This document shows, piece after piece, positions 5,622 through 54,268 of a DNA stretch of 64,000 nt. The stretch comes from Terrimicrobiaceae bacterium (GTDB lineage: Bacteria; Verrucomicrobiota; Verrucomicrobiia; Chthoniobacterales; JAATET01). A program made the position numbers and the translations under genes. How positions within the stretch are numbered: position 1 is the stretch's first letter; each line of letters starts with the position of its first letter. The notes under the pieces are model-generated. The model made no database searches and was not told the DNA's origin. It worked only from the letters and a program-made list of their open reading frames with translations. The stretch lies in contig JAQTOP010000008.1 in assembly GCA_028713285.1 (NCBI GenBank), positions 1,572 through 65,571 on the forward strand, given 5' to 3'.

Positions 5622-6493
5622 TCGAAGGTCAGCCGCTGGATCGCCTCAACCCAGTCGTTGCGCCCCACCAGGCTGAGGAAAAAAAGCGCATTGCGATTGA
5701 CGGCGCCCTTGCGCATGAGCCCGCTCCAGATCAGCGGATAGGGCCCGTGGTAGTAATGATGAGCGCCAAGGATGCGCTCGTCCACAGCCGCGCGCTCCGT
5801 CTCGCCGGCGAACTTTCTCACGAGGAAGCGATACAAATCGGTCGCGCTCTTGAACCGTTCGAGCCGTCCGGGATACGGGATGGCTGCATGCGCCCGCCCT
5901 TCGATGCGGTAGCTGTGCATCGTGAGCTCCGCCGGGAGACCCGCATCCTTCGCTCCTCCGCGCCGCTCAAACGCCCATGGCGTGTGCTCGGACTCGGGCA
6001 GGCCCGCGATCAACCGGTCGAGCAGATCGCGCAACGCATCGAGCCTCCACAGCGCGGGATGAAGCGGATATTTCCACAGCGTATCCGGAAGGCACCGATC
6101 GAGCTGCCAGTCGCGCCACTTCACCACTTTGCCGTTTGTCGCGCGCCCCTGCCCGTAGCCCGACAAGGAAATGCTCACCGCGCCGAGCTCGCGCATCATT
6201 GCAGGCAGCGTCTCGTTCAAATGCGCGGCGTGGCAACGCCCAAGCGGCGGGTGGTCGTCGAGAATAAGGTAGGCCTGCGCAAAGCCGTCGGCCATCAATG
6301 CGTCGCACGCGGACCGCACGACCTTCATCCAGTCGCGCGGATCGTCGTGCAGCGGCAGCGCGCAGGGATCGCCCGAGATCCCGCAGAGCCGCAGGGGCGG
6401 AGCGTCTTTCCAAAACTCTTGAATCCGCGCCCGGGTGAAATCCGTAAGCGACCGGTATTTCTCGCAGGTCGAAATGAGGATGCAGGTGTTCAC
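5618..6493 (-). CDS. Hypothetical protein inside the glycosyltransferase string (possible GT-A-like, LILDDHP)
   Basis: Coherent 291-aa ORF starting at GTG 6493 (GTGA overlap with the stop at 6490). I recognise no family. CILISTCEKY ... AYLILDDHPP is loosely reminiscent of a nucleotide-sugar transferase core. Confidence 0.5.
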   Translation of the reverse strand: MNTCILISTCEKYRSLTDFTRARIQEFWKDAPPLRLCGISGDPCALPLHDDPRDWMKVVRSACDALMADGFAQAYLILDDHPPLGRCHAAHLNETLPAMMRELGAVSISLSGYGQGRATNGKVVKWRDWQLDRCLPDTLWKYPLHPALWRLDALRDLLDRLIAGLPESEHTPWAFERRGGAKDAGLPAELTMHSYRIEGRAHAAIPYPGRLERFKSATDLYRFLVRKFAGETERAAVDERILGAHHYYHGPYPLIWSGLMRKGAVNRNALFFLSLVGRNDWVEAIQRLTFE

Positions 6494-47291: not shown

Positions 47292-48173
47292 ATGTTCCGG
47301 CCATTCCTTCTCTTCGCCTCGCTGATGCTTTGCGTCCCGGCCGCCCTCGGCGCGCAGCTCCCGCTCAACAGGACGTTCAAGGGCCAGGCGAGATTCCAGC
47401 GGCTCGTCGCGCAGGCGCAATCGGAGAACTGGCGCGCGCTGCCCATCGGCGAGCGCACCGCGCGCGTGGGCATGGCGCTGCTCGGTACGCCCTACGCGAA
47501 CTACACACTCGAAATCGACGATCACATCGAGGCGCCGAGCGTGAACCTCAACGGGCTCGACTGCTGGACCTTCTACGAGACTTCGCTCGCATTCGCCCGC
47601 ATGATCAAGCAAAAGCCCGTCGGCGCGACGCCGGAGGACCTGCTGTCATTCATCGAGCTCGAGCGCTACCGCGGCGGGCATTGCACGGGCGGCTACCTGT
47701 CGCGCATGCACTTCCTCGAGGAGGTTTTTTCCGACAACTCGCGCCGCGGCCTCGCCGTGAACCCCACGCAGGATCTCGGCGGCGTTCCCATCCGGCGCAA
47801 CATCACGGAAATGACCTCCGCGTGGCGCAGCTATCGCTACCTCGTCCACAACCCCGGCCTGCTGCCCGGAATGGCGGCGATTCAAGACCGCGTCTCCGCG
47901 CTGCCCGTCTATTACATTCCAAAGGCGAAGGTTCCGGCGACCGAGAAATCCCTGCGCACCGGCGATGTCGTCGCGATCGTCTCGGCGGATCGCTCGGGCT
48001 ACACCTCGCATGTCGGCATGGTGGTGAAGCGACCCGATGGCATGCACTTCATGCACGCCACATCGAGCCGCTCCCGCGGCCATCGCGTGATCCTCGACGA
48101 TCGCATCTCGCAATATCTCAAGCGATCGAGCGACCACATCGGCATCATCGTCTATCGGCCGCTGGATGCATGA
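47292..48173 (+). CDS. DUF1460-like (amidase-like) exported protein
   Basis: Signal peptide MFRPFLLFASLMLCVPAALG. LGTPYANYTLEIDD...VNLNGLDCWTFYETSLAFARM resembles the DUF1460 core as I remember it. Confidence 0.55.
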   Translation: MFRPFLLFASLMLCVPAALGAQLPLNRTFKGQARFQRLVAQAQSENWRALPIGERTARVGMALLGTPYANYTLEIDDHIEAPSVNLNGLDCWTFYETSLAFARMIKQKPVGATPEDLLSFIELERYRGGHCTGGYLSRMHFLEEVFSDNSRRGLAVNPTQDLGGVPIRRNITEMTSAWRSYRYLVHNPGLLPGMAAIQDRVSALPVYYIPKAKVPATEKSLRTGDVVAIVSADRSGYTSHVGMVVKRPDGMHFMHATSSRSRGHRVILDDRISQYLKRSSDHIGIIVYRPLDA

Positions 48174-51100
48174 GCGGGCCGGCCGGCGGGACTTCCCGGT
48201 TCCTTCGGCGGTCGGCGAATCCCATGATCACGACGTAAAATACCGGCGTCAGCAGCAACCCGAAGAACGTAACGCCGATCATGCCGGAGAAGACGGCGGT
48301 GCCGAGGGCCTGGCGCATCTCGGCGCCCGCGCCCGTCGCAAGCACCAGCGGAAGCACACCGAGGATGAACGCGAAGGAGGTCATGAGGATCGGTCGAAGG
48401 CGCAGCCGGCAGGCCTCGACGGCGGCGTCGAAGCGGGATTTGCCCTCCTTCACCTGAATCTGTCGCGCGAACTCGACGATAAGAATCGCGTTTTTACACG
48501 AGAGGCCGACGAGAACGATGAAACCGATCTGGGTGAGGATGTTGTTGTCGAGGCCGCGCATCCAGACGCCGGTGATGCCTGCGAGCAGGCACATGGGCAC
48601 GATGAGAATGATCGCGAGCGGAAGGGACCAGCTCTCGTATTGCGCGGCCAGCGTGAGGAAAACGAAGAGCACGCAGAGCGGAAAGATGTAGATCGCCGTG
48701 TTGCCGGCGAGCTTCTGCTGGTAGGCGAGATCGGTCCATTCGAAGGCAAAACCGGCGGGCAGATTCTCCCGGGCAAGCCGCTCGATCGCCTCGATGGCCT
48801 GGCCGGAGCTGAAGCCCGGCACCGTGTCGCCGCTGATATCGGCGGCAGGGTAGAGATTGTAACGAATCACGCGGTCTGGACCGGTCTTTTCCTTGATCTC
48901 CATGAGCGAGCCGAGCGGGACGATGGCGCCGGTCTTGCTGCGGGTCTTGAGGTTCGCAATCGCGGAGGGATCATCCCGAAATCTCGCTTCGGCCTGCGCG
49001 GTGACGCGGTAGGTGCGTCCGAAAAGGTTGAATTCATTGACGAATTGCGAGCCGAGATAAACTTGCAGCGTCTCGAAAATCTCACTCAGCGGGACGCCCA
49101 GCTTCTTGGCCTTCGTGCGGTCGATATCCGCGTAAATCTGAGGGGTCGAAACGCGGAAGGGCGAAAAAACCTGGATGAGTCCGGGCTCCGCGCGCGCCGC
49201 CGCGGAGAGCTTGTCCGCGGCCTGCTGGAGGGCGGCCAGACCGGCGCCGCCGCGATCCTGCACGTCGAGCTTGAAGCCGCCTCCCGTGCCCAGACCGCGC
49301 ACCGGTGGAGGCGGGATGACCACGATCACCGCATCGGGAATCGCGGCGAATTTTTTCCGAAGATCCGCCATGATCGAGACCGCGCTCCTGCCGGCTTTCA
49401 CCCGCTCGTCGAAGGGCTTGAAAGGCGTGAAGACGGCGCCTGCATTCGAGGCGTTGGCCCGGGTTGCACCGGAGAATCCCGCGAAGGCGACGGCGTTGAG
49501 CACGCCCGGCGTCTCCATCGCGAGACGGGTGACCTCCTTGACCACGGCGTCGGTGCGCTCGAGCGCTGCCGCGTCCGGGAGCTGGATCGCAACGATGGCG
49601 TAGCCTTGATCCTGGGCCGGGATGAATCCCGCGGGCACCTGCGAAAATCCGAACCACGCCAGGCCCAGCAGCCCTGCATAGACGATCAGGGCGAGCGCCG
49701 CCCTGCGTACGACGCGGCCGACGTCGGCCGTGTAGCGGCGGGTGGCCCAGTCGAACGCCCGGTTGAATCCGTTAAAGAACCACCCGAACAGGAAATTCCA
49801 GATTCGCGTGAACCAATCGCATCTTGCCTCCCTGGGGCGCAGCAATAATGCGCCCAGCGCCGGACTGAGCGTGAGCGAGACGAAGGCCGAGATGACGGTG
49901 GATACGGCGATCGTGAGGGCGAATTGCTTGTAGAACTGGCCGGTGATTCCTGAGACGAATGCGGTCGGAATGAAGACCGCCGAGAGCACGAGCGCGACCG
50001 AAATGACCGGGCCACCCACCTCGTCCATGGCCTTGAATGCCGCATCGCGCGGGCTCATCCCTTCGTGAATGTGGCGTTCGATATTCTCGACGACGACGAT
50101 GGCGTCATCGACCACGATGCCAATCGCGAGCACGAGGCCAAAGAGCGTGAGATTGTTCAGCGAAAAGCCGAGCGCGGCCATCACGGCGAACGTGCCGATC
50201 AACGAAACGGGGATGGCCACGAGCGGAATGACCGAGGCGCGCCAGCTCTGGAGGAAAACCATGATGACCAGCACCACGAGCAGGATGGCCGCAAAGACGG
50301 TATCCACGACCGCGTGGACGGACTCCTGGATGAAAACGGTCGGGTCGTAGATGATGCGGTATTCGAGGCCGGGCGGAAAATTGACGCTCAGGTCCTTGAT
50401 CGCCCGACGCACGGCCTCCGCGGTCGCGAGCGCGTTCGACCCCGGCCGCTGCTGCACGGCGAGAGCCACGGCCGGCTTGCCGCCGAGATAGCTGTTTACC
50501 GAATAGTCGAGGGCGGCGAGTTCGACGCGCGCCACGTCGCGCACCTTCACGATGCGTCCGTTGTCGCCTGTCTTCACGACCACGTCGGCGAACTGCTCGG
50601 GATCCTTGAGGCGACCCAAGGTGGTGACGGTCAGTTGGAAGGCTCTGCCCTTCGGCACCGGCGGCTGGCCGATCACGCCCGCGGCGACCTGAACGTTTTG
50701 CTCGCTGAGCGCGTTGACGACGTCGGTGGCGGTAAGGTTGAGATTGCTCAGGCGCTCCGGATCGAGCCAGATGCGCATGCTGTATTCGCGCCCGCCAAAA
50801 ACGTTGACCTGGCCGACGCCATCGACCCGGCGCAGTTGATCGCGCACCTGGAGATAGGCGTAGTTGCTGATGTAGAGCTGGTCGTAGCGGTTGTCGGGCG
50901 AGATGAGATGCGCCACGAGAAGGAGATCGGGCGAACTCTTGTCCACCTTCACGCCGATGCGGCGGACGTCCTCGGGGAGACGCGGCTCCGCCACCGCAAC
51001 GCGATTTTGCACGAGGACCTGGGCGGTATCGAGGTTCGTGCCGAGTTTGAAGGTGATCGTGATGTTGAGCTGGCCGTCGGCGGTGGCCTGCGACGACATG

Positions 51101-51336
51101 TAGAGCATGTTCTCCACGCCATTGATCTCCTGCTCGATGGGCGTGGCGACCGTATCGGCGATGACCTCGGGATTCGCGCCGGGATAGGAGGCCGTCACGA
51201 CGATGGTCGGAGGGACGACGTTCGGATACTGCGCAATCGGCAGCGACTGGAACGAGATCGCACCGACGAGAGTGATGACGATCGACAAAACCGCCGCAAA
51301 AATCGGACGGTCGATAAAGAAGTGCGAAAACTTCAT
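48145..51336 (-). CDS. RND multidrug efflux permease (HAE1, AcrB/MexB family)
   Basis: MKFSHFFIDRPIFAAVLSIVITLVGAISFQSLPIAQYPNV is the canonical AcrB N-terminus. 1063 aa with 12-TM architecture. ATGA overlap with the adaptor gene. Confidence 0.95.
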   Translation of the reverse strand: MKFSHFFIDRPIFAAVLSIVITLVGAISFQSLPIAQYPNVVPPTIVVTASYPGANPEVIADTVATPIEQEINGVENMLYMSSQATADGQLNITITFKLGTNLDTAQVLVQNRVAVAEPRLPEDVRRIGVKVDKSSPDLLLVAHLISPDNRYDQLYISNYAYLQVRDQLRRVDGVGQVNVFGGREYSMRIWLDPERLSNLNLTATDVVNALSEQNVQVAAGVIGQPPVPKGRAFQLTVTTLGRLKDPEQFADVVVKTGDNGRIVKVRDVARVELAALDYSVNSYLGGKPAVALAVQQRPGSNALATAEAVRRAIKDLSVNFPPGLEYRIIYDPTVFIQESVHAVVDTVFAAILLVVLVIMVFLQSWRASVIPLVAIPVSLIGTFAVMAALGFSLNNLTLFGLVLAIGIVVDDAIVVVENIERHIHEGMSPRDAAFKAMDEVGGPVISVALVLSAVFIPTAFVSGITGQFYKQFALTIAVSTVISAFVSLTLSPALGALLLRPREARCDWFTRIWNFLFGWFFNGFNRAFDWATRRYTADVGRVVRRAALALIVYAGLLGLAWFGFSQVPAGFIPAQDQGYAIVAIQLPDAAALERTDAVVKEVTRLAMETPGVLNAVAFAGFSGATRANASNAGAVFTPFKPFDERVKAGRSAVSIMADLRKKFAAIPDAVIVVIPPPPVRGLGTGGGFKLDVQDRGGAGLAALQQAADKLSAAARAEPGLIQVFSPFRVSTPQIYADIDRTKAKKLGVPLSEIFETLQVYLGSQFVNEFNLFGRTYRVTAQAEARFRDDPSAIANLKTRSKTGAIVPLGSLMEIKEKTGPDRVIRYNLYPAADISGDTVPGFSSGQAIEAIERLARENLPAGFAFEWTDLAYQQKLAGNTAIYIFPLCVLFVFLTLAAQYESWSLPLAIILIVPMCLLAGITGVWMRGLDNNILTQIGFIVLVGLSCKNAILIVEFARQIQVKEGKSRFDAAVEACRLRLRPILMTSFAFILGVLPLVLATGAGAEMRQALGTAVFSGMIGVTFFGLLLTPVFYVVIMGFADRRRNREVPPAGPLMHPAADRR

Positions 51337-52499
51337 GCGCCCGTCCGGCTGTCCGTCGTCTCATCGGGCCTGGCATCCACCTGCGCGCCGGGGCGCACCC
51401 GCTGCAAGCCGCGCGTAATGACGCGCTCGCCCTTGCGGAGACCGTCGCGAATCACTCGCAGGCCATCCGACAGCGGCCCCAGGGCGACCTTGCGATAGTC
51501 CACCGAACCGTCGGGCTTCACGACGTTCACGAATTTGTTGGATTGATCGGTGACGATCGCCTGATCGGGAACGAGGACCGCCTCATATTTCCCGCTGCCC
51601 TGGAGCCGAACGCGGGCGAACATGCCGGGCGTCAGTTGGAGATCCTTGTTCGGAAACACCGCCCGCCCCTGGATCGTCGAAGTCTGCTCATCCAGCGCAT
51701 TTTCCATGAAATCCATCCGACCCTGCCGCCGAAAGGTGTCTTCATCCGCGAGCTGGAGTTCGACGGGATTTGCCGCCGTGCGCGAGCTGGGCAGCTTGCC
51801 CTCGCGGTCCAGCCGCTGATATTTCAAATAGGCCCGCTCGTCGGCCTCGAAGTAACAATAGATCGGGTCGAGCGAAACGATCGTCGTCAGCAGGGTGGTG
51901 TCGGTGCCGTCGCCCCCGCTGATCAGGTTGCCCTCGGTGACGAGCTTGCGGCTGATTCTTCCGGAAATCGGCGCGTGCAGGTTGGTGAAGTCCAGGTTGA
52001 GCTTTGCTTCGTCGTAGTCCGCCTTTGCGGCCAGGTAGGCGGCCTGGGCCTGGATCAGTTCATTCCGGCGGGAATCGATCTCCTCCTGCGCGATTACCCT
52101 GTCGGCGGCAAGCTTCACCGTGCGCTGGTCGTTGAGCTGCGCGAGCTTGAGCTTCGCATCCGCCTGCTTGAGGTCCGCTTCCGCCCGATTGAACTTCGCC
52201 ACGTAGGGCCGCGGATCGATGACAAAGAGCAAATCGCCCTGCTTGACGATCTGGCCATCCTTGAAGTGCGTGGACTCGAGGAAGCCGCTCACCCGGGCGC
52301 GCACTTCCACGCGATCCGGCGCTGCGAGGCGGCCCGTGTATTCGTCCCACTCGACGATTTCCTTCGCGACTGCCGGGGTCACAAAAACCACCGGTTTCGA
52401 AGCGGGCGGGGCGGTCGGCTTCTGCCGGCAACCAGTCAGTCCCTGCCCGACCGCCAGCAAAGCGGCGTACCATAAAAACATACGAAGTTTTCCCGTCAC
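51333..52499 (-). CDS. RND efflux periplasmic adaptor (MFP, AcrA/MexA family) lipoprotein
   Basis: Lipobox LTGC after a signal peptide. VRARVSGFLESTHFKDGQIVKQGDLLFVIDPRPY is the lipoyl/hairpin pattern. GTG start at 52499, or ATG at 52481. Confidence 0.9.
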   Translation of the reverse strand: MTGKLRMFLWYAALLAVGQGLTGCRQKPTAPPASKPVVFVTPAVAKEIVEWDEYTGRLAAPDRVEVRARVSGFLESTHFKDGQIVKQGDLLFVIDPRPYVAKFNRAEADLKQADAKLKLAQLNDQRTVKLAADRVIAQEEIDSRRNELIQAQAAYLAAKADYDEAKLNLDFTNLHAPISGRISRKLVTEGNLISGGDGTDTTLLTTIVSLDPIYCYFEADERAYLKYQRLDREGKLPSSRTAANPVELQLADEDTFRRQGRMDFMENALDEQTSTIQGRAVFPNKDLQLTPGMFARVRLQGSGKYEAVLVPDQAIVTDQSNKFVNVVKPDGSVDYRKVALGPLSDGLRVIRDGLRKGERVITRGLQRVRPGAQVDARPDETTDSRTGA

Positions 52500-52623
52500 G
52501 CGGCGGAAACCTAGCCTCTTGTTCGATGTTCGTCAAACGACCTTCCGATGGCCCGCCGCAGCCCAATGGCAGGCGGCGGACTATTTGCCGGCGGCCGAGA
52601 GTTTTTCTTGACGTGGAAACAGC

Positions 52624-52660
52624 AAAGTGGTGAAAAGTGGGGCCAAGTGGAGGTTAGTGG
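52624..52660 (+). promoter_or_regulatory. Putative MraZ operator: four direct AGTGG repeats with exact 10-bp phasing
   Basis: AGTGG occurs at 52626-52630, 52636-52640, 52646-52650 and 52656-52660 (aaAGTGG tgaaaAGTGG ggccaAGTGG aggttAGTGG). The last repeat ends 20 nt upstream of the mraZ ATG, and tatata follows at 52661-52666. Phased GTGG-containing repeats are the known MraZ binding architecture. Confidence 0.6.
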
Positions 52661-52680
52661 TATATAGACCCTAAATCCGA

Positions 52681-53136
52681 ATGCCGAGGGAATCAACAAA
52701 CGGAACGATTTACGCGGGCGCATTCCATCGCACGATGGACGCGAAGAATCGTGTCACGATTCCTTCCGAATGGCTCGGCGACGGGAAGGAGGCATTCTTT
52801 GTCCTGCCCGCGCGGACGAATCTCAGCGTGATGCCGGAGCAGGAACTCTCCAGGCAGGAGGACGAACTGCGCCAGATGCTGCCTGCCGGCACCGTGCGGC
52901 AGGAGGCATTGCGCCGGATTTACAGCTCCGCGCGGCGCGTCGAGCCCGACAAGCAGGGACGGATCCTGCTGCCCGACGAACTTTGCAAAAAGATCGAGCT
53001 GAGCGGCGACGTGGCGTTCGTCGGCGTGAAAAGCCGTTTTGAAATCTGGAGCGCGGCGAAATGGTCGATCGTCGCCGGGCAGGAACCGCAGCTCTCCGAC
53101 GAGGCGCGCGAGGCGCTCGAGGCTTTGGGACTATGA
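52681..53136 (+). CDS. mraZ: Transcriptional regulator MraZ
   Basis: FHRTMDAKNRVTIPSEW and a second half VEPDKQGRILLPDELC give the duplicated DxxxR(I/V)xxP SpoVT-AbrB motifs. First gene of the dcw cluster. Confidence 0.9.
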   Translation: MPRESTNGTIYAGAFHRTMDAKNRVTIPSEWLGDGKEAFFVLPARTNLSVMPEQELSRQEDELRQMLPAGTVRQEALRRIYSSARRVEPDKQGRILLPDELCKKIELSGDVAFVGVKSRFEIWSAAKWSIVAGQEPQLSDEAREALEALGL

Positions 53137-53347
53137 CAATGAAGGATTCCACCGAATGAGGAGACCCGGCCGATGAGCAAAGCCGGTCGCAAGTTCTTCT
53201 GCGGGTTTTCGCCCGCGAAAGATGCGAACGGCCAGCCCGCCGGCGCAGCGATCATTAAACTCAAACCACGCAACGCATATGAACTGCTTGGACTTCGAAG
53301 ACCCGCTCGACCTGCTCTTGGAAAATTCTGAGCCCGCGCCCGGCTGC

Positions 53348-54268
53348 ATGGACTACCACGTTCCCGTCCTCGCCGACGAAGTCGTCGCCTTTCTGCGACC
53401 CGCGCCCGGCATCCTCTTCCTCGATGGCACCGTCGGAGGCGGCGGCCACTCCGAGCGCCTGCTCCAGGCCGGCGCCCGCGTCATCGCGCTCGACCGCGAT
53501 CCCGAGGCCCTCGCCTACGCGGCCGGCCGTCTCGCGCCCTTCGCCCACCGGCTCACGCTGCTGCAGGCAAACTATGCGGACGCCGCCCAGGCGCTCGACT
53601 CGCTGGGCATCGCGGATATCGGCGGCGCGCTCATCGACATCGGCGTGTCCTCCCACCAGCTCGACACCGCCGCGCGGGGCTTCTCGCTCCTGCACGACGG
53701 TCCGCTCGACATGCGCATGGGCGCGGACACCACAGTCACCGCCGCCGATCTCGTCAATGAAGAATCGCCCGAGAACCTGGTGCGGATTCTGCGCGAATAT
53801 GGAGAGGAGAATTCCGCCGTGCGCATCGTCTCGCACCTCGTCCATCTCCGCAGCTCGATGCGTTTCGAAACGACCGGCCAGCTCGCCGACGCCGTGAGCG
53901 ACGTGATCCCGCGCACGGGCCGCCGCCACCCCGCGACGCGGGTTTTCCAGGCGTTGCGCATCGCGGTGAACGACGAACTCGGCTCGCTTCATCGCGGCCT
54001 CGACGCCATCAGCGGTCGCCTCGCCCGTGGCGCGCGATTCGGCGTGATCACGTTTCACTCGCTCGAGGACCGCATCGTGAAACGCTACTTCAAGCACCGC
54101 AGTTCCGAGTGGCTCGATCGTCCCGAGTGGCCCGAGCCCCGACGCAATCCCGATCGCATCTTCCGGCTTCTCACTCCGCATCCCATCGACCCCGGTCCCG
54201 AAGAGATCGAGGCCAACCCACGCGCCCGCAGCGCCAAACTCCGCATCGTCGAGCACATCCAGCCATGA
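53348..54268 (+). CDS. rsmH: 16S rRNA (cytosine1402-N4)-methyltransferase RsmH/MraW
   Basis: HVPVLADEVVAFL...DGTVGGGGHSERLL...DIGVSSHQLD...RGFS. Start chosen at MDYHVPVL (53348); ATG 53279 is possible. Confidence 0.9.
   Translation: MDYHVPVLADEVVAFLRPAPGILFLDGTVGGGGHSERLLQAGARVIALDRDPEALAYAAGRLAPFAHRLTLLQANYADAAQALDSLGIADIGGALIDIGVSSHQLDTAARGFSLLHDGPLDMRMGADTTVTAADLVNEESPENLVRILREYGEENSAVRIVSHLVHLRSSMRFETTGQLADAVSDVIPRTGRRHPATRVFQALRIAVNDELGSLHRGLDAISGRLARGARFGVITFHSLEDRIVKRYFKHRSSEWLDRPEWPEPRRNPDRIFRLLTPHPIDPGPEEIEANPRARSAKLRIVEHIQP

Follow-up and report, generated by a model that had tools for sequence, protein, structure and literature searches.

Upstream of mraZ, in the window of 64,000 nucleotides of verrucomicrobial DNA analyzed here, four AGTGG pentamers follow one another in strict register, and the same intergenic region separates mraZ from a divergently transcribed pair of MFP/RND efflux pump genes. 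This arrangement raises the question of what the repeats control: they might be an operator for MraZ, a site shared with the pump, or a feature without relevance for either. Our analysis leads us to conclude that they very probably constitute the MraZ operator and serve the negative autoregulation of the dcw promoter, with the divergent MFP/RND genes depending on a separate promoter.

The four boxes begin at positions 52626, 52636, 52646 and 52656, with start-to-start distances of 10, 10 and 10 bp; a direct reading of the sequence and a repeat search agree on this point, as had been stated in the earlier note. The putative operator, assigned by its phasing, its conservation and its match to published boxes, spans 52626 to 52660 on the plus strand. 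It consists of four GTGG cores, where at least three repeats are expected of a MraZ operator, every one of them preceded by an A and separated from the next by a 6-nt spacer; 4-nt core and 6-nt spacer together make up one helical turn. Both motif and period are those of the published MraZ boxes (PMC12957436, PMC7761207, bioRxiv 10.1101/2022.02.09.479790). The four-box pattern occurs a single time in the 64 kb, even with two mismatches allowed, and for a three-box GTGG-N6 pattern with at most one mismatch the array upstream of mraZ was likewise the sole match in the window. None of 100 dinucleotide-preserving shuffles of the window contained the four-box pattern. The word AGTGG is slightly under-represented in the window, with 45 occurrences observed vs 61 expected, and it is therefore the exact 10-bp phasing that forms the non-random signal. 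An additional, out-of-phase CGTGG is indeed present at 52612-52616, 14 nt from box 1 and beside the TTGACG at 52608-52613, as had been described; it was rejected as a fifth box, as the bases after TTGACG are unrelated in relatives and the motif is not conserved.

The gene that follows the array, mraZ (52681-53136, plus strand), encodes a protein of 151 amino acids that matches Pfam PF02381 with E = 2.5e-18, and its ATG, located 20 nt past the end of box 4, is kept in all relatives. It heads a dcw cluster with the plus-strand order mraZ-rsmH-ftsL-ftsI-murE-murF-mraY, in which Pfam matches identify RsmH, a PBP3/FtsI-type transpeptidase, MurE, MurF and MraY downstream of mraZ, and rsmH and ftsI are separated by an FtsL-like ORF. 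Both DXXXR motifs are present in the window MraZ (D20-R24 and D90-R94). The PDB matches of the protein are 1n0e, 9qlg and 9sx6, and in a residue-level alignment to PDB entries K22, R24 and R94 align with K13, R15 and R86 of M. genitalium MraZ. The two DXXXR motifs and the base-contacting Lys/Arg/Arg triad that are expected of a cognate MraZ are thus found in the protein encoded next to the array. Note that its score of 66.6 against the NCBIfam MraZ equivalog remains below the curated cut-off of 98.35, so that the window MraZ has to be considered a divergent member of the family.

The annotation of this gene and of its neighbor deserves some comment. Codon 9 was considered as an alternative mraZ start. 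Some relatives have ATG or GTG there, but the codon reads ACG in the window and in lineages L082, L168 and L170, and ATA in L162; such a start is not kept across the relatives, and the ATG at 52681 was therefore retained. This start adds a 9-residue N-terminal extension that is specific to the clade. Many of the MraZ database entries in the clade, with 133-135 amino acids and including one that is 100% identical, begin only at Met19 (MDAKNR...; segment 52681-52737, plus strand), and such a start loses the conserved YAGxF strand, which in the alignment is matched to the N-terminal end of the Mycoplasma MraZ structures. Between mraZ and rsmH we observed a conserved ORF of 52 codons (MSKAGRKFFCGFSPAKDANGQPAGAAIIKLKPRNAYELLGLRRPARPALGKF; 53173-53331, plus strand). 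Counted from a conserved ATG/GTG, its length is exactly 52 codons in 13/13 related lineages, and a purine-rich stretch, GAGGAG-like in most, precedes this start in 12 of the 13; in L082 the frame is open further upstream, to a TTG. Substitutions are synonymous in its frame and non-synonymous in the overlapping rsmH frame, which makes it probable that rsmH, as usually called (53222 or 53279; 327 amino acids in relatives), is too long. The canonical start of rsmH, MDYHVPVL, is the ATG at 53348. A Pfam search with the product of the 52-codon ORF gave no match, and its homologues are exclusively hypothetical proteins of 52-53 amino acids with 63-90% identity, one of them labelled as originating from a soil metagenome.

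By its MraZ homologues and by scans of genomes and metagenomes, the window belongs with Spartobacteria/Chthoniobacterales-type organisms of the Verrucomicrobiota. In order to follow the array through the clade we assembled 16 distinct lineages with 39-78% MraZ identity from MraZ homologues, genome and metagenome scans and the encoding contigs. The earlier note had proposed looking for the repeats upstream of mraZ in relatives, and there they are conserved. Fourteen of the 16, all of Chthoniobacterales type and with 50-78% MraZ identity, share one architecture, a T-tract followed by TTGAC[G/T], 13 nt, (GTGG-N6)x4, approximately 20 nt and the ATG. The remaining two hold phased variants of the array: L166 has four phased TTGG/ATGG boxes downstream of TTGACT, and in L175, downstream of TTGACG, four out of five phased slots are GTGG. 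The array persists while its flanks diverge, and the 13-nt stretch between the TTGAC hexamer and the first GTGG core is fixed in length, its letters being free to vary. One contig, L087 (Ga0137414_1239432), shows MraZ and MFP matches that are broken across several frames around a fully conserved intergenic region; it is probably a low-quality, frameshifted contig.

Outside the clade, we evaluated 134 distinct regions upstream of mraZ, taken from Clostridia, Planctomycetota, Chloroflexota, Nitrospirota and further groups, for the same register. In 94 of them, three or more exact GTGG cores fall into a register of four slots with a 10-bp period, and in 25 of these 94 the three exact boxes are complemented by a near-match in the remaining slot; in coding controls of equal length, even two phased GTGG cores were found in 0/121. 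Four perfect cores are thus a feature of the clade within our sample, and the four-slot array as such is common. This bears on the earlier suggestion that four boxes distinguish the present operator from the three of E. coli, a distinction that does not hold: upstream of mraZ in E. coli K-12, AGTGGgaaatTGTGGggcaaAGTGGgaataAGGGG comprises AGTGG, TGTGG and AGTGG, with the fourth slot occupied by a degenerate AGGGG, four-box operators have been published (PMC12957436, PMC7761207), and near-four arrays make up the 25/134 distant loci just mentioned. The wide distribution of the motif is also pertinent to the idea that the repeats arose by chance or from low complexity, or are bound by some other protein. 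Its only favorable point is the shortness of the core, and against it stand the result of the shuffling, the strict conservation over 50-78% protein identity amid diverging flanks, and the occurrence of the same motif upstream of mraZ in other phyla. We consider such an origin extremely improbable, and in comparative terms it appears effectively refuted by the conservation.

Where the array is placed relative to the promoter bears on its presumed mode of action. The T-tract (52602-52606) and the -35-like hexamer TTGACG (52608-52613) form a plus-strand element at 52602-52613 that recurs as TTTT(C)-TTGAC[G/T/C] in 16/16 lineages, and in 14 of the 16 the hexamer precedes the first GTGG core by exactly 13 nt, the distance also found in the window. 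As judged from this alignment, TTGAC and T-tract are the best-conserved putative promoter element of the mraZ/dcw operon. From the fixed spacing between the -35 hexamer and box 1, a candidate -10 element is expected at the junction of boxes 1 and 2 (52631-52638, plus strand). The options are TGAAAA with a 17-nt spacer and a TGG before it, or AAAAGT with a 19-nt spacer, both of them weak matches. A simple scan for the sigma-70 consensus on both strands of 52300-52900 returned no promoter, a result that says little, as the scan also missed the conserved promoter of the pump. Given that all candidate -10 elements are weak and that the consensus scan was empty, we infer where the array lies with respect to the transcription start rather than read this off directly.

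A second candidate lies at the other end of the array, where an extended -10-like TGgTATATA (52658-52666, plus strand) abuts box 4. The earlier note was right about this contact, TATATA occupying 52661-52666, and was off by a trivial single nucleotide in the gap to the ATG, which counts 14 nt rather than 15. The array might still be bound by MraZ if this element were the active promoter; the leader would then be some 7-9 nt long or missing altogether, and MraZ would repress from the -35/spacer region. Several features agree with such an arrangement. TGGTAT[A/G]TA is present in the window and, as TGGTATGTA, in 12 relatives, the mraZ ATG lacks a preceding Shine-Dalgarno sequence, the neighboring pump gene appears leaderless in the clade, and the segment [A/G]A[A/C]CCT-N8-ATG resembles the -10-to-start geometry of the pump, with a spacing that survives a 12-nt duplication in L085. 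The last position of the hexamer is, however, an A and not a T, no -35-like sequence is found 17 nt upstream, and TTGACG is 47 nt off, which makes a pairing with the conserved -35 impossible. Moreover, the motif is replaced by GTGGATCGCA in L164 and by GTGGTGCATA in L174, so that TATNTA is lost in these two deeper lineages although the TTGAC hexamer and the four boxes remain. This loss, compared with a TTGAC hexamer that is present in all lineages, is in favor of transcription beginning within the array, with TTGAC as the -35 at about boxes 2-3, and with approximately 35-40 nt of leader. We thus regard a TATATA-driven mraZ as a possibility, if a rather doubtful one, and the TTGAC-based promoter as more likely the main promoter; TGgTATATA may be a second one. 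With either promoter, the array would overlap core promoter elements.

The segment directly before the start codon, TAGACCC-TAAATCC-GA (52665-52680, plus strand), reads TAAACCC-TAAnnCC in relatives, and these tandem heptads, TA(A/G)ACCC-TAAnnCC, are kept across the clade. The patterns TGgTAT[A/G]TA and [A/G]A[A/C]CCT-N8-ATG occur in most lineages, as weak matches, with altered versions in L164, L174 and L175; in L085 (about 5969-6000), where the pre-start segment contains the duplication, AACCCT-N8-ATG is retained. The segment may represent a discriminator or start-site region, or a region for translation initiation independent of a Shine-Dalgarno sequence. An E-value scan of 52350-52850 against Rfam gave no match and hence no known leader RNA. 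Two further candidates were rejected, a CCCT/AGGG hairpin around the mraZ ATG, which is broken in L168 and L170, and an AUG-UAA 'start-stop' within TATGTAA, which is absent from the window (TATATAG) and from L174.

The GTGG core, the 10-bp period, the position at the mraZ promoter, the conservation and the intact DNA-reading residues of the cognate MraZ all point to the repeats being the MraZ operator of this lineage, as the earlier note had proposed. In the mechanism that we envisage, four subunits of an opened MraZ ring would each insert a beta-sheet 'cradle' with K22, R24 and R94 into four major grooves that follow one another along the same face of the DNA. Starting 13 nt after TTGACG, the array would lie over the -10 region of the dcw promoter and its likely transcription start, and MraZ bound there would block RNA polymerase, leading to the repression of mraZ and of the rsmH-ftsL-ftsI-mur genes and thus to negative autoregulation. 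Boxes downstream of a conserved -35 and over the -10 and start region represent a repressor geometry, as in other bacteria. The opposite sign of regulation has been considered as well, since overexpression of MraZ in M. gallisepticum was reported to be activating (as cited in PMC12957436), and in view of this report the sign cannot be read from sequence alone. In spite of this precedent, an activating MraZ is highly improbable here, given the placement of the boxes and the repression known from E. coli, B. subtilis and M. genitalium, complemented by the fact that MraZ binds the dcw promoter in B. cenocepacia.

This leaves the genes on the other side of the intergenic region. They encode, on the minus strand, an MFP adaptor of the MexE/OqxA type (51333-52499), for which the nearest NCBIfam models are MexE/OqxA-type adaptors, and an AcrB-type RND permease (48145-51336) related to the NCBIfam multidrug RND permeases; both assignments are in line with Pfam. 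The adaptor GTG start at 52499 yields a lipoprotein signal peptide (VTGKLRMFLWYAALLAVGQGLTGC), and the GTG starts in relatives agree with it, so that the 181-nt upstream region shared by both transcription units, 52500-52680, had been delimited correctly. The description of the pump as a divergent RND efflux operon was accurate as to the divergent MFP/RND pair, and the operon is limited to these two genes: the next Pfam-matched ORF beyond them (47292-48173) encodes an AmiA-like amidase and is convergent, and neither an outer-membrane factor nor a regulator was found among the neighboring candidate ORFs scanned.

The pump has a candidate promoter of its own on the minus strand (52497-52536), with the -35 hexamer TTGACG (52531-52536), a 17-nt spacer, the -10 hexamer TAGGTT (52508-52513) and 8 nt to the GTG (52497-52499). 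The pattern TTGAC[G/T]-N17-TA[G/C]nnT-N7-8-GTG was found in 9/9 pump-bearing lineages. A strict leaderless-promoter pattern had one match in the window, at the pump gene, vs 0.02 expected, and the MFP/RND mRNA is predicted to be leaderless and to initiate translation at the GTG. We had also considered leaderless expression as a general trait of this genome, a claim that was dropped, as the strict pattern occurs at the pump gene only.

Could MraZ, bound at 52626-52660, nevertheless modulate the MFP/RND genes, be it through looping by the free subunits of the ring or through supercoiling that couples the back-to-back promoters? The MFP/RND pair lies directly upstream of mraZ in divergent orientation in 9 of the 16 lineages, in one more with a single inserted gene in between, and in six it is absent; this divergent arrangement was not seen in the other phyla sampled. 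Conserved divergent pairs that involve a transcription factor are often pairs of a regulator and its target, which counts for a bidirectional operator. A MraZ ring furthermore has subunits beyond the four that contact the array (PMC12957436). A complete and conserved pump promoter argues against this possibility, however. The array lies 90 nt past the pump -35 and 127 nt from the pump start and thus does not overlap both promoters, and across lineages the distance from box 1 to the pump start is 115-128 nt. No GTGG or CCAC box is contained in 52497-52540, the pump promoter, and the distances between the two -35 hexamers, 59, 60, 60, 63, 63, 63, 63, 71 and 72 nt, show no helical phasing. Array and pump do not depend on each other's presence, as the array is unchanged in the six lineages without an adjacent pump, and array and TTGAC hexamer alike are unaltered in the pump-less L001, L002, L081 and L164. 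The control region that the earlier note considered shared with the efflux genes consequently resolves into two parts, as a conserved promoter without a GTGG box, 71 nt off (between the -35 hexamers), is assigned to the pump, and the array is identical where no pump is found. A bidirectional operator is therefore very unlikely in our view, and control of the divergent MFP/RND genes from the array would not be expected.

A separate motif tracks with the pump and adds to the case against such an operator. It is CGGACTAT (52577-52584, consensus C[C/G][G/A][G/A]A[C/T]T[A/G]T), which lies between the two promoters in pump-bearing loci only, at distances from the -35 hexamers on either side that vary; a regulator of the pump might use it as its site. 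In the window, a GC-rich inverted repeat, ATGGCCCGCCGC / GCGGCGGACTAT (52548-52559 / 52573-52584), overlaps this motif, and the enclosing segment 52536-52610 has a fold z of -2.4; the repeat was set aside, as it is not conserved in relatives. If it were true, a tuning of the MexEF/OqxAB-like pump by MraZ would explain why the adjacency of mraZ and MFP/RND is kept in most lineages, and it would tie the division and cell-wall programme to envelope efflux. A brief two-term literature search found no link between MraZ and efflux. This link is the sole conceptually new part of the proposal, and the sequence evidence argues against it.

As to the significance of these findings, the array would extend the known MraZ operator to the Verrucomicrobiota (Chthoniobacterales), a group for which a limited literature search found no description of MraZ boxes. 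Four perfect boxes over the predicted -10 and start of the dcw promoter fit the structural model of four MraZ subunits on four boxes. Other bacteria were already known to have operators with four boxes, and the understanding of MraZ regulation is unchanged. The practical value lies mostly in annotation, regarding the truncated MraZ entries, the apparently over-long rsmH calls and a pump gene that looks leaderless.

In divergent operators of the tetR/tetA type, the gene for a regulator diverges from that for a transporter and the operators overlap both promoters. The window shares the divergence of a regulator gene from a transporter gene, but the whole of its array is on the side of mraZ, and the promoter of the pump is separate. 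Closer parallels are provided by other mra promoters. That of B. subtilis also contains GTGG repeats, three GTGG[A/T]G boxes in contrast to the four in the window; repression was lost once the repeats and the -35/-10 elements were replaced together, and this is the only multi-box array in that genome (bioRxiv 10.1101/2022.02.09.479790). In E. coli the MraZ boxes of Pmra mediate repression (Eraso et al. 2014, as cited in PMC7761207 and PMC8475190). With AGTGGgaaatTGTGGggcaaAGTGGgaataAGGGG they show the same motif, 10-bp period and orientation between promoter and mraZ, but the fourth slot is degenerate there and 31 nt separate the -35 from the first GTGG core, compared with 13 nt in the window, so that the E. 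coli boxes are located downstream of the -10 and not over it. In PmraBc of B. cenocepacia, four repeats of 7 nt with spacers of 3 nt lie over the transcription start, and MraZ shifts the fragment (PMC7761207). Four repeats with a 10-bp period are common to both loci; in B. cenocepacia they lie downstream of the -10 with a leader of 100 nt, whereas the window array extends from 13 nt after the -35 to 20 nt before the ATG.

In M. genitalium, four boxes with a GTG(G/T) core and 6-nt spacers are found directly 5' of mraZ, and cryo-EM revealed an opened octamer of which four subunits sit on these four boxes, the bases being read by K13, R15 and R86 (PMC12957436). Each of the three residues is required for DNA binding, and a R15/R86 double mutant no longer represses (PMC12957436). 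The transcription start is located within a box and repression requires the boxes (PMC12957436), and in mraZ mutants the cluster is derepressed, which identifies MraZ as a repressor (PMC8475190). The window differs from this system in several respects: all four of its boxes are GTGG rather than three GTGT and one GTGG, they are flanked by the G+C-richer AAAGTGGGG instead of AAAGTGT, and the predicted operator belongs to a diderm verrucomicrobium whose dcw cluster is full. The two nevertheless have in common the four direct repeats upstream of mraZ and the contact residues, K13, R15 and R86 corresponding to K22, R24 and R94, and the start inside a box in M. genitalium finds its counterpart in a window array that would overlap the core promoter, with a transcription start predicted to lie inside the array.
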